Sequence record: NZ_CP044080.1
Direction: 5' to 3' (one strand)
Length of the DNA stretch: 64,000 bases
Source: a plasmid
Shown here: one piece after another, positions 3,533 to 6,117 of the stretch
Layout: every line of letters starts with the position of its first letter
Numbering within the stretch: position 1 is the stretch's first letter
Notes under the pieces: model-generated
Told to the model about the DNA's origin: nothing
Databases searched by the model: none
The model's input: only the letters and a program-made list of their open reading frames with translations
Made by a program: the position numbers and the translations under genes

Positions 3533-4474
3533 GTGATCCAGCAAGATGCCCAGACCGTCGCCGATATCCAGACCCAGATCATGCAAGCCACGGCCCCGCA
3601 TTTGCGCGGGCAGCATCCCAAGATGCACGGCTGCGTCGCCGCCCTGTTCGAGGTCCTGCCGCTGCCGCCGCCGCTGGACCAGGGCCTGTTCGCCCGGCCC
3701 GCCCGGTTCGATGCGCTGGTGCGCCTTTCCAACGGCAGGGAAAGGGACGACCGCAAGCCGGATGCGCATGGCATGGCGATCAAGCTGCTGGGTGTTGCGG
3801 GCGAAAAGGCCATGCCCGAGGCGCCCGAGGGCGAACAGGATTTCATCCTGGTGGACAACCCGGTGTTCTTCATTCGCAACGCGGCGGATTATGCCCGCTT
3901 CATGGCTCTGGTCGCTGCCGACAGGAAGGCGGAGTTCCTGGCCTATCTTCACCAGACCCACCCCGAGGATGTTGCCGTGCTGACGTCATTCGCGCAGCAC
4001 ATCCAGGCCGACCCGCTGTCGGCGACCTACTGGGGACAGGTGCCCTATGCGCTGGGACCGGACCCCGCCACCGCCTGCCGCTATCGCGCGGTGCCGCGCG
4101 TGCCCGCCCCGGACGACAGCCCCGGCGCCACGCCCGATTACCTGCGCGAGCGGATGGTGGCGCGGCTGGCGCCCGAGGCGTCGCCGGTGGTCTATGACCT
4201 TCAGGTGCAACTGCGCCAGGACGCCGATGCGGCGGTGATCGAGAACCCGACCGTCGAATGGGACACCCCCTTCGTGACCGTCGGCACGCTGACCATTCCG
4301 CCCCAGGACTTCGATACGCCCGAACGCCGCGCCCGGGGCGAGGGCCTGCGCTTTTCGCCCTGGCACGCCCTGGCGGCGCATCGTCCCCTCGGAGAGATCA
4401 ACGCCGTGCGGCGCGTGGTCTATCCGGCCAGCCAGGCGCTGCGCGCCGCCAGCAGCGGGAAGGCCGCGTCATGA
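3533..4474 (+). CDS. Mini catalase-related hemoprotein (catalase core-like, ~313 aa). The family includes allene-oxide-synthase-like and fatty-acid hydroperoxide-metabolising enzymes
   Basis: Motifs align to the catalase core. HPKMHGCVAALFEV matches catalase HAKGAGAFGYFEV, the distal His region. FDALVRLSNG matches VFVRFSTV. GMAIKLL...DFILVDNPVFFIRN matches GFAVKFYT...WDLVGNNTPVFFIRD. The C-terminal RFSPWHALAAHRPLGEIN matches the proximal RLFSY..RLG.N region. The start is uncertain between TTG 3500, GTG 3533 (GAGG 7 nt upstream) and ATG 3581. The stop overlaps the next gene as ATGA. Confidence 0.75.
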   Translation: MIQQDAQTVADIQTQIMQATAPHLRGQHPKMHGCVAALFEVLPLPPPLDQGLFARPARFDALVRLSNGRERDDRKPDAHGMAIKLLGVAGEKAMPEAPEGEQDFILVDNPVFFIRNAADYARFMALVAADRKAEFLAYLHQTHPEDVAVLTSFAQHIQADPLSATYWGQVPYALGPDPATACRYRAVPRVPAPDDSPGATPDYLRERMVARLAPEASPVVYDLQVQLRQDADAAVIENPTVEWDTPFVTVGTLTIPPQDFDTPERRARGEGLRFSPWHALAAHRPLGEINAVRRVVYPASQALRAASSGKAAS

Positions 4475-6117
4475 CCGCCACCGCCCGGCCCCACCCCCCG
4501 CGCGACACCTCGGCCGACGGCTGGGGCAACCGCCTGCAAGCCTATGCGCTAAGCCATTTTCCGGCGCTGTGGCGCGGCGTCATGGCGGTGCCGCCGCTGC
4601 GGCGCCTGGCCAACGACAAGATCGTGGACATGGCCGTGCGCCGTGCGCCCGCCCGCCCCATGGCCTTCGGCGCGATGACCGCGCGCGCAGACAGCGCGGC
4701 CAGTTGCAGCGCCGAATACACCTCGTGGGAAATGCTGACCGACCTGGGCTGGTACAAGCGCCACCTGCCGCAGGTTCCCCTGCGCACGGACCCGCCGCTT
4801 GACGACGTGGTCGCGCTGTTTCGGACCGATCCGGGCGGCGGCGTCCCGTCCGAGGACAGCAGCGTCCTTTTCATGTCCTTTGCGCAATGGTTCACCGACG
4901 GCTTCCTGATGACGGACGCGGTGGACCGGCGCCGCACCCACAGCAGCCACCAGATCGACCTGAATCCGCTTTACGGCCTGACGCGGGCCGAAACCGATGC
5001 GGTGCGCCTGCGCTCCGAGGAACGGGGGCGCCGCGGCCGGCTGAAGGTCGAGCGGATCAACGGCGAGGACTTCGCGCCCCGGTATTACGACGACGCCGGC
5101 AACCCTCGCGCCGAATTCGGCGCGCTGCGCAAGCCGCTGCGTCTGGACGAATGGCGATCCAAGGCGCCACCGGACCGGGACGAGGCGGTCAAGGCAACCC
5201 TGTTCGCCTTCGCGGGCGAGCGGGCGAACAGCACGCCTTATACCGCCATGCTGAACACGTTGTTCCTGCGCGAACACAACCGCCTAGCCGGCGTGATCGA
5301 GAAAGCCCACCCCGGCTGGGACGACGAGCGCGTGTTCCAGACCGCGCGCAACGTGACCATCGTCCTGCTGATCAAGATCGTGATCGAGGAATACATCAAC
5401 CATATCTCGCCCTATCATTTCCAGCTGACCGCCGATCCGGCCGTCTGCTGGCGCAAGTACTGGAACCGGCAGAACTGGATTCCTTTGGAATTCAACATGC
5501 TTTATCGCTGGCACAGCCTGACGCCGGACCGCTTTGCCATAGCCGGTCAGGAGATCCTGGCAACTGACCTGCTGTTCAATCACCAGCCGCTGGTCCAGCA
5601 TGGGCTGAATGCAATGATGCAGGCGGCAAGCGACCAGCGCGCCCGCCAGATCGGGCTGTTCAACACGCCCGATTTCCTGATCCCCGTCGAGGCGAGCACC
5701 CTGCAGCAATCCCGAGACCAGCGGCTGGCCTCGTACAACGACTACCGGCAGGCCTTCGGCTATGGCCGGGTCAGGCGGTTCGACCAGATCACCGGGGATC
5801 CGCGCCGGATCGAGGCACTTCAGGCGCTTTACGGCGACGTGGATCAGGTCGAGTTCATGGTGGGACTGTTCGCCGAGGACATCTCGCCCCGCTCGGCGGT
5901 GCCGCCGCTGATCGGGCGGATGGTGGCTCTGGACGCCTTTTCGCAGGCGCTGACCAATCCCCTGATGGCGGAATGCGTGTTCACGCCGGCCACCTTTTCG
6001 GAACCCGGATGGCAGGCGATCCAGGAAACCCACCGCTTGCAGGACATTCTGGACCGCAACACGCCACCCGGGACGGCCCCGCCCCGGGTTACGATGACGC
6101 TGCCGCCCGCGACCTGA
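4471..6117 (+). CDS. Cyclooxygenase-like heme dioxygenase/peroxidase of the animal heme peroxidase - PGHS superfamily (548 aa)
   Basis: There are strong PGHS-like blocks. FAQWFTDGF aligns with [19 protein letters not shown] with [19 protein letters not shown] with [41 protein letters not shown] with [31 protein letters not shown], and EFNMLYRWHSL with EFNTLYHWHPL, which carries the catalytic Tyr and proximal His. [10 protein letters not shown] aligns with APFSLKG..TFG. ATG at 4471 overlaps the stop of the upstream gene as ATGA. Confidence 0.85.
   Translation: [548 protein letters not shown]

Follow-up and report, generated by a model that had tools for sequence, protein, structure and literature searches.

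The 64,000-nucleotide stretch of plasmid DNA analysed here (sequence record NZ_CP044080.1; hereafter the window), which is 98.4–98.6% identical to Paracoccus yeei megaplasmids, carries on its plus strand a gene, gene 3, for a cyclooxygenase (COX)-like haem protein of 548 residues in which an aspartate occupies the position of the COX distal histidine. Gene 3 is the last of three genes that encode an exported dihaem c-type cytochrome (gene 1), a catalase-related 'mini-catalase' (gene 2) and the COX-like protein, and a gene for a LuxR/GerE-type regulator diverges from them (Table 1). At the same coordinates in near-identical P. yeei plasmids, including pTT13-1, the NCBI annotation pipeline (PGAP) labels gene 3 a 'peroxidase family protein', and in the P. 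yeei megaplasmids gene 2 is a 'catalase family protein' and gene 1 a 'hypothetical protein'. No NCBIfam model was found for gene 2 or gene 3, and a promoter and terminator scan of positions 1200–6500 returned nothing exceeding the shuffled background.

An aspartate at the distal histidine position

The gene 3 protein matched the An_peroxidase family (PF03098) with 156.1 bits (cut-off 25; E = 1.6e-45), the match beginning at residue 157, with the distal helix outside the matched span. Its nearest solved relatives in phmmer searches were human COX-2 (E = 3.7e-61) and COX-1 (about 1e-55), with peroxinectin, lactoperoxidase, alpha-dioxygenase and myeloperoxidase (MPO) far behind. An AlphaFold2 (AF2) model computed with 115 homologues (pLDDT 95, pTM 0.94) was superimposed by Foldseek on COX-1/2 with a TM of 0.83 and a root mean square deviation of 2.4 Å over about 540 columns, at 28–29% identity to COX-2 in the structural alignment, whereas the TM to alpha-dioxygenase and MPO was only about 0.63–0.66 (about 0.66 for alpha-dioxygenase, at 15–16% identity). 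By these matches the gene 3 protein is a member of the peroxidase–cyclooxygenase superfamily. The COX-2 alignment starts at residue 25 of gene 3 and residue 58 of the COX chain, in the region of the membrane-binding helices, with which three N-terminal helices of the model are aligned; upstream of them there is no epidermal growth factor (EGF) domain.

Across the distal helix, the phmmer alignment of gene 3 to human COX-2 is free of gaps (segment FMSFAQWFTDGFLMTD), and residues 132–145 are helical in the AF2 model. In COX-1 numbering, Gln203 is kept as Gln139, His204 is replaced by Trp140 and His207 by Asp143, so that the residue at Gln+4, which is histidine in superfamily motifs of the Q-x-x-D-H-D type, is Asp143. 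A departure from this signature has been described for family 4 of the superfamily (PMC4420034). We ruled out that the T-D-G of gene 3 is a fungal T-H-D offset by a one-residue deletion: the alignment to COX is gap-free, 6 of the 9 block residues are identical and the flanks match. On the proximal side, EFNMLYRWHSL of gene 3 pairs with EFNTLYHWHPL of human COX-2, which keeps the catalytic Tyr385 as Tyr345 and the proximal haem ligand His388 as His348; the equivalents of COX Tyr348 (Tyr308), Tyr355 and Trp387 are also kept. The initial annotation had read both sites in the same way, with the glutamine kept, His204 and His207 changed to Trp and Asp, and an intact YRWH, and the alignment bears out each of these assignments.

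We then asked how far the aspartate extends through the family. The family set comprised the 120 best word-indexed homologues of gene 3 (50–98% identity), 150 representatives of 50%-identity clusters (to about 35% identity), 119 relatives of the distant member P0139 and three homologues taken from genomes, of which two belong to Aquimarina (Bacteroidota); a single family alignment, made with a hidden Markov model, held 402 sequences, 31 of them fragments without coverage of the Asp143 column. Among the 371 relatives that cover the site (33–98% identity), this column held Asp in 363, Glu in 7, Asn in 1 and His in none, a bias well outside what chance or sequencing errors could give. The Gln139 and Trp140 columns held Gln in 360 and Trp in 348 of the 371, the Tyr345 column held Tyr in 388 of 390 and the His348 column His in all 390, and Tyr308 was, like Tyr345, nearly invariant. 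Relatives of the Asp type span the Alpha-, Beta- and Gammaproteobacteria, Actinobacteria, Cyanobacteria, Planctomycetes and Bacteroidota, with named sources that include Rhodovulum, Roseibium, Mesorhizobium, Bradyrhizobium, Methylobacterium, Kiloniella, Cupriavidus, Nitrosomonas, Methylomonas, Cellvibrio, Mycobacterium, Rhodococcus, Gordonia, Actinomadura, Anatilimnocola, Tolypothrix and Aphanothece. Because a carboxylate is found in 99.7% of the sequences across these phyla, the site appears to be under selection and not decayed. The swap, which the initial annotation presented as a peculiarity of this one protein, is therefore common to nearly all relatives, and it has already been printed for the 10S-dioxygenase (10S-DOX) of Nostoc. 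Judged by this conservation, the exchange of His for Asp is old, has been selected and belongs to the bacterial branch as a whole; it is not local degeneration. A literature search for a bacterial cyclooxygenase with a distal histidine/aspartate returned no match.

A histidine from elsewhere in the chain was also considered as the distal base. The protein contains 13 histidines, of which the family conserves only His98 (74%), His160 (92%), His269 (99.7%), His311 (98%) and His348 (100%), corresponding through the COX-2 alignment to COX-1 positions 151, 226, 309, 351 and 388. The first four of these positions we take to lie outside the distal pocket. His98 is the least certain of the four; because Tyr or Gln takes its place in 22% of relatives, it cannot be a universal base. 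Homology mapping of the conserved histidines thus placed no other histidine in the distal position; the objection that the initial annotation had foreseen to its own reading does not hold on this evidence, and a relocated base was rejected for gene 3, with a residual uncertainty at His98.

Arg251 and the predicted haem pocket

What the initial annotation overlooked in its otherwise correct account of the distal Gln, His and Asp positions is Arg251, which stands where COX has Val291. Counting residues back from the shared REHNR motif, we equated Arg251 with the distal catalytic arginine of myeloperoxidase-type enzymes (Arg239 of MPO). A distal motif X-R-X-X-E has been described for the superfamily (PMC4420034), and the superfamily combination of a distal arginine and a proximal histidine is present in gene 3 as Arg251 and His348. 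Arg251 was invariant among the 115 closest relatives, and arginine occupied the position in 284 of 386 sequences family-wide. Asp143 was retained where the position of Arg251 is taken by His, Thr, Gln, Ala, Asn or Val and, since it stays where the arginine is replaced, seems the more essential of the two. A subgroup of 59 of the 386 members, with the motif GLEHGN and mostly actinobacterial names of the Rhodococcus/Gordonia type (for example P0359 from Rhodococcus, and L012), has His at the position of Arg251 and keeps Asp143; in these proteins a histidine may lie in the distal cavity as a relocated distal His.

The predicted distal pocket of gene 3 is Gln139/Asp143/Arg251, where COX has Gln/His/Val and true peroxidases have Gln/His/Arg. 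The two branches appear complementary, with COX having the His without the Arg and the Asp-type bacterial branch usually having the Arg without the His. The residues that form haem esters in myeloperoxidase-type enzymes, Asp at Gln+3 and Glu at Arg+3, are replaced in gene 3 by Thr142 and Ser254, and haem b is therefore expected to be bound non-covalently, as in COX. A covalent haem link through Asp143 itself was considered and is unlikely, as the ester-forming positions are those of Thr142 and Ser254.

In DyP-type peroxidases, a distal Asp/Arg pair supports peroxidase chemistry. Like the pocket predicted here, theirs has a carboxylate and an arginine on the distal side of the haem, where His/Arg would otherwise stand; their fold and superfamily are unrelated, and the likeness to gene 3 is a functional analogy only. 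By this analogy, the Gln/Asp/Arg pocket could cleave an O–O bond. From the conservation of the aspartate and the DyP precedent we infer an acid-base role for Asp143, possibly in a pair with Arg251; that Glu is almost the sole tolerated substitute fits such a role. A 2026 review in the Journal of Biological Chemistry notes how little is known of peroxidase activity in such dioxygenases and says of the arginine at the Val291 position that it 'may merit investigation' (PMC13049297).

The mini-catalase gene and the wider locus

The stop codon of gene 2 overlaps the ATG of gene 3 by 4 bp (ATGA, 4471–4474), and on the strength of this overlap the two genes are read as translationally coupled. The gene 2 family conserves R25-G-Q27-H28-P-K30, which matches the distal-His block R-V-V-H-A-K of catalases, and the proximal R293-x-x-x-Y297. 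Its profile matched the 33-kDa protein MAP_2744c (PDB 3e4w; E = 1.4e-15), ordinary catalases and the coral allene oxide synthase (AOS) domain 1u5u (E = 1.5e-5). Gene 2, MAP_2744c (3e4w/3e4y) and the coral AOS domain are all small haem proteins related to catalase, having His on the distal side and Tyr/Arg on the proximal side; MAP_2744c reportedly has peroxidase activity. Immediately before the distal His28, the gene 2 family has an invariant Gln27; the residue at this place is Val in catalase and Thr in coral AOS. In addition, DFILVDNPVFFIR of gene 2 (residues 103–115), set against DLVGNNTPIFFIR of catalase, has Val/Ala where catalase has its distal Asn, with Val107 at that position. Read from these motifs, the gene 2 pocket appears unlike that of both true catalases and coral AOS.

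Natural fusions join the two activities in both orders, dioxygenase then mini-catalase in P0127 and mini-catalase then dioxygenase in P0140, with mini-catalase domains 42% and 45% identical to gene 2. In Tolypothrix (Nostocales), a dioxygenase gene and a mini-catalase gene lie side by side and encode products 44% and 37% identical to those of the window pair; the mini-catalase gene lies downstream of the dioxygenase gene there, whereas gene 2 lies upstream of gene 3. The proposal in the initial annotation that gene 2 handles the hydroperoxide of gene 3 gains support from its assignment as a catalase-related haem protein, from the ATGA overlap and from the fusions to Asp-type dioxygenases. The reason it gave, that a partner is needed because the distal His is missing, is weak: fungal 8R-, 10R- and 10S-DOX retain this His, yet they too carry fused P450 domains that convert the hydroperoxide (PMC9579011, PMC13049297). 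As these His-retaining enzymes also have partners, the coupling is better seen as a property of the pathways and not of the Asp swap.

Upstream of gene 2, gene 1 has a RoxA-like C-terminal domain and matched RoxA itself (4b2n) with E = 2.6e-8; its match to NF040606, a dihaem cytochrome c peroxidase model, was below the cut-off at 127 bits. The order RoxA-like cytochrome, mini-catalase, dioxygenase is kept in Rhodovulum and Roseibium, and the Rhodovulum products are 65%, 62% and 62% identical to those of genes 1, 2 and 3. The Rhodovulum gene 2 orthologue (locus L008) is a 664-residue tandem double mini-catalase, whose N-terminal half is 62% and C-terminal half only 23% identical to the Paracoccus protein, so that P. 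yeei gene 2 corresponds to the first module only; the Roseibium orthologue (L009) is similar in length, at 668 residues. The divergent LuxR/GerE-type regulator possibly controls the cluster, and no such gene lies beside the Rhodovulum or Roseibium clusters. As far as we could find, no oxylipin cluster has been described with a third, periplasmic haem protein of an oxygenase- or peroxidase-like type; Pseudomonas aeruginosa has a dihaem 10S-DOX and a 7,10-diol synthase (PMC4496055).

Other neighbours and fusion partners of the family are related to lipids. In Rhodovulum the dioxygenase gene is followed directly by one for a patatin-like phospholipase; downstream of gene 3, the window has two small minus-strand genes (DUF3008 and DUF2934) and glgX, and no patatin gene. 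Asp-type dioxygenases are fused to a patatin phospholipase in P0123 and to a P450, N- or C-terminally, in P0125, P0170 and P0175, and the homologue in L012 adjoins a Tle1-like lipase. The homologue in an alphaproteobacterial metagenome-assembled genome (L002), 55% identical to gene 3, has as neighbours a FadL/TodX fatty-acid channel of the outer membrane and a short-chain dehydrogenase; no mini-catalase adjoins it, and a second An_peroxidase gene in this locus is split into two overlapping open reading frames (ORFs), possibly by a frameshift or as a pseudogene. Four further relatives (P0133, P0188, P0132 and P0179) carry large extensions without a Pfam match or with a weak AAA match only. Taken together, the mini-catalase pairing and the patatin, FadL, lipase and P450 context outline a pathway that starts from lipid and leads through free fatty acid and hydroperoxide to a secondary oxylipin.

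Table 1 Features of the gene 3 locus and of related loci. Positions refer to the window unless a locus is named.
Feature	Position	Strand	Basis or detail
LuxR/GerE-type helix-turn-helix regulator gene, divergent	201..1367	-	PF00196 (E = 1.4e-7), PGAP
Gene 1, exported dihaem c-type cytochrome, RoxA-like C-terminal domain	1641..3503	+	PF21419 (E = 1.2e-19)
Gene 1 haem motif CGACH	2130-2144	+	sequence motif
Gene 1 haem motif CGTCH	2916-2930	+	sequence motif
Gene 2, catalase-related mini-catalase, 313 residues from the PGAP GTG start (alternative start TTG at 3500)	3533..4474	+	profile matches, conserved residues
Gene 2 distal His28	3614-3616	+	family conservation
Gene 2 proximal Tyr297	4421-4423	+	family conservation
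Gene 3, COX-like haem dioxygenase, 548 residues	4471..6117	+	intact ORF, PF03098, COX-2 match, AF2 fold
Three N-terminal helices H18-29, H31-39 and H41-56 (residues 18-56), aligned with the COX membrane-binding-domain region	4522..4638	+	AF2 model
Distal-helix block FAQWFTDGF (residues 137-145); Gln139, Trp140 and Asp143 at COX Gln203, His204 and His207	4879..4905	+	COX-2 alignment
Asp143 codon GAC, COX distal His207 position	4897..4899	+	COX-2 alignment
Arg251 in GERAN, COX Val291 position	5221..5223	+	Glu250-Arg251 paired with COX Glu290-Val291
YRWH, with Tyr345 (COX Tyr385, catalytic) and His348 (COX His388, proximal haem ligand)	5503..5514	+	COX-2 alignment
Gene 1 counterpart, Rhodovulum	L008 1009-2886		synteny
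Gene 1 counterpart, Roseibium	L009 1007-2881		synteny
Gene 2 counterpart, Rhodovulum	L008 2959-4953		synteny
Gene 2 counterpart, Roseibium	L009 2948-4954		synteny
Patatin-like phospholipase gene (743 residues), directly downstream of the Rhodovulum dioxygenase gene	L008 6703-8934	+	
Gene flanking the gene 3 homologue, alphaproteobacterial metagenome-assembled genome	L002 4251-5621	-	
Gene flanking the gene 3 homologue, same genome	L002 7665-8639	+	
Gene flanking the gene 3 homologue, same genome	L002 8546-10502	-	

A probable fatty-acid dioxygenase of the Nostoc kind and rival readings

The closest characterised counterpart of gene 3 is the 10S-DOX of Nostoc punctiforme (NpDOX, UniProt B2J5P4, 542 residues), in which the COX segment F205-T-H-Q-F corresponds to 'F143-t-d-s-F of 10S-DOX' (PMC13049297). 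The same source gives an Arg at the COX Val291 position, Tyr305, the catalytic Tyr342, Ile483, Ala487 and three helices that match the membrane-binding domain of COX; citing Brash 2014, it reports that the enzyme oxygenates oleate and linoleate to 10S-hydroperoxides, including 10S-HPODE, and that a separately encoded catalase-related protein is a specific hydroperoxide lyase for the 10S-hydroperoxide (PMC13049297). We made the comparison through these printed motifs and landmarks. The landmarks of Nostoc 10S-DOX and gene 3 correspond as F143/F141, Tyr305/Tyr308, Tyr342/Tyr345, Ile483/Val485 and Asp486-Ala487-Phe/Asp488-Ala489-Phe490. Gene 3 has the block F141-T-D143-G-F together with Arg251, as expected for a Nostoc-type F-T-D-[S/G]-F plus Arg, and its R483-M-V485-A-L-D488-A-F-S-Q-A follows the terminal motif R-x-[IV]-x-x-D-A-F-x-Q-A. 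The two proteins are alike also in length (542 and 548 residues), in the lack of an EGF domain, in the D-A-F-x-Q-A terminus and in having a separate catalase-related partner gene. They differ in that Nostoc has Ser at the motif position of Gly144, in the location of the genes (a cyanobacterial chromosome compared with an alphaproteobacterial megaplasmid) and in the additional RoxA-like dihaem cytochrome c of the Paracoccus cluster. A fingerprint of the Nostoc 10S-DOX motifs found no match among the 419 family proteins retrieved, and N. punctiforme was not among the relatives listed from the P0139-seeded search, which did include Tolypothrix and Aphanothece.

Set beside COX-1/2, its best solved structural match, gene 3 keeps the equivalents of Gln203, Tyr348, Tyr355, Tyr385, Trp387 and His388, and has Asp143 for His207, Trp140 for His204, Arg251 for Val291, Ala489 for Ser530, Val485 for Gly526 and Val57 for Arg120, with Arg58 adjacent; the COX signal peptide, like the EGF domain, is absent. 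COX-1/2 make and reduce an endoperoxide, whereas gene 3 is expected, by analogy with the Nostoc enzyme, to release a hydroperoxide. Many metagenomic relatives are named 'prostaglandin-endoperoxide synthase 2' in JGI data, which is probably an over-annotation, because His207, Arg120, Ser530 and the EGF domain are missing. Plant alpha-dioxygenases, which keep the distal His, and the fungal LDS/Ppo DOX-P450 enzymes are also Tyr-radical fatty-acid dioxygenases that hand the hydroperoxide to a second haem catalyst. P450 fusions occur both in the fungal dioxygenases and in the Asp-type family; unlike gene 3, the fungal enzymes keep the distal His as T-H-D and have other membrane-binding domains (PMC13049297, PMC9579011).

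Together, these comparisons lead us to propose that gene 3 is probably a bacterial fatty-acid dioxygenase of the Nostoc punctiforme 10S-DOX kind, the hydroperoxide of which is converted by the gene 2 mini-catalase. A trace of hydroperoxide would oxidise the haem of gene 3, and Asp143, probably in a pair with Arg251, would stand in for COX His207 in acid-base catalysis. The ferryl haem would then oxidise Tyr345 to a radical, which would take an allylic hydrogen from a C18 unsaturated fatty acid; O2 would add to give a fatty-acid hydroperoxide. This product would be released and not reduced by gene 3, and the mini-catalase, a haem protein with His28 and Tyr297, would convert it to secondary oxylipins in a lyase-, isomerase- or synthase-type reaction. 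The altered peroxidase chemistry that the initial annotation predicted for gene 3 is plausible from the residues of the pocket, and matches the Nostoc report of a hydroperoxide product that is transformed by a separate lyase.

Several points weigh against this proposal. Arg251 is not universal in the family (Arg in 74%, His in 15%), so that an Asp/Arg pair may not be obligatory. The closest cyanobacterial relative compared, from Tolypothrix NIES-4075, is 44% identical over its full length and stands proxy for B2J5P4. The natural substrate of gene 3 is not obvious, since the fatty acids of Paracoccus are mainly monounsaturated C18:1 and the genus is not known to produce polyunsaturated ones. 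Last, the three genes superficially resemble an antioxidant set, being cytochrome c peroxidase-like, catalase-like and peroxidase-like.

The best surviving alternative, which is the strong form of the reading in the initial annotation and which we hold possible but doubtful, is that loss of the histidine abolished two-electron reduction of hydroperoxides, that Asp143 has a structural or electrostatic role only, that activation is slow or homolytic and that the mini-catalase compensates. The complete lack of His at the His207 position in 371 relatives would agree with this, as would the mini-catalase or P450 partners, adjacent or fused, and the Nostoc homologue, which is reported to yield 10S-HPODE for transformation by a separate enzyme (PMC13049297). 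COX-2 itself also speaks for it: its His207 mutants reportedly lost most of the peroxidase activity, with cyclooxygenase activity remaining after a lag (Landino et al. 1997). A near-invariant Asp, with Glu as the sole common substitute, points instead to a required carboxylate and not to a relaxed site, and the catalytic Arg of the superfamily is retained. Formation of the tyrosyl radical would still need at least one O–O cleavage at the haem. Dioxygenases of fungi in which the distal His is intact likewise set hydroperoxides free and work with partners (PMC9579011), so that having a partner does not hinge on the loss of His.

Considerably less probable is an antioxidant cluster, in which the three haem proteins would detoxify H2O2 or organic peroxides and gene 3 would be a true peroxidase with a DyP-like Asp/Arg pair and not a dioxygenase. 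The family-level gene names, the peroxidase chemistry that the pair supports in DyP-type enzymes and the peroxidase activity reported for MAP_2744c, the closest solved relative of gene 2, speak for it; yet Tyr345 and Tyr308 are nearly invariant, the terminal substrate-channel motif matches that of 10S-DOX, gene 3 is nearer to COX than to true peroxidases (TM 0.83 versus about 0.63) and lacks their haem-ester residues, having Thr142 and Ser254. The fusions and neighbours of the family are lipid-related (patatin, P450, FadL and lipase), and the gene 2 family, as its alignment reads, is without the distal Asn of catalases. That gene 3 is a true bacterial prostaglandin synthase, turning arachidonate into PGG2/PGH2, is hardly credible, for although COX-2 is its best solved match at 28–29% identity in the structural alignment, the JGI name stands on many homologues and Tyr385, His388, Tyr348 and Tyr355 all have equivalents, the protein lacks the distal His, Val57, Ala489 and Val485 replace Arg120, Ser530 and Gly526, there is neither an EGF domain nor a COX-type PGH2-reducing peroxidase site, and the characterised homologue is reported to turn C18 fatty acids into 10S-hydroperoxides.

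An Asp at the His207 position has been printed for Nostoc 10S-DOX (PMC13049297), and a bacterial Asp-type dioxygenase with a catalase-related partner is a known kind. To this we add the family-wide counts, the complementary His/Arg pattern of COX and the Asp-type branch, the subgroup with His at position 251, the fusions and the conserved association with a RoxA-like cytochrome. We tentatively suggest that the Asp-type branch might rely on a carboxylate (Asp143, in most members together with the ancestral Arg251) for acid-base catalysis when hydroperoxide drives formation of the tyrosyl radical, the reciprocal of the solution in animal COX, and that Paracoccus, Rhodovulum and Roseibium might share an oxylipin operon of three haem proteins that has not been described. 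For the mechanism, the counts of Asp in 98% and His in none at the one position, and Arg in 74% and His in 15% at the other, turn the remark of the review on the Val291 position into a defined mutagenesis question. For annotation, gene 3 and hundreds of relatives are best read as Asp-type fatty-acid dioxygenases with a hydroperoxide-converting partner, and not as 'prostaglandin-endoperoxide synthase 2' or 'peroxidase'. For the biology of the organism, an opportunistic human-associated bacterium, the place of the cluster on a megaplasmid and its conserved neighbour, the RoxA-like dihaem cytochrome, suggest an oxylipin pathway in bacteria that has gone unexamined; if this is true, the operon in P. 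yeei might act on unsaturated fatty acids of the host.

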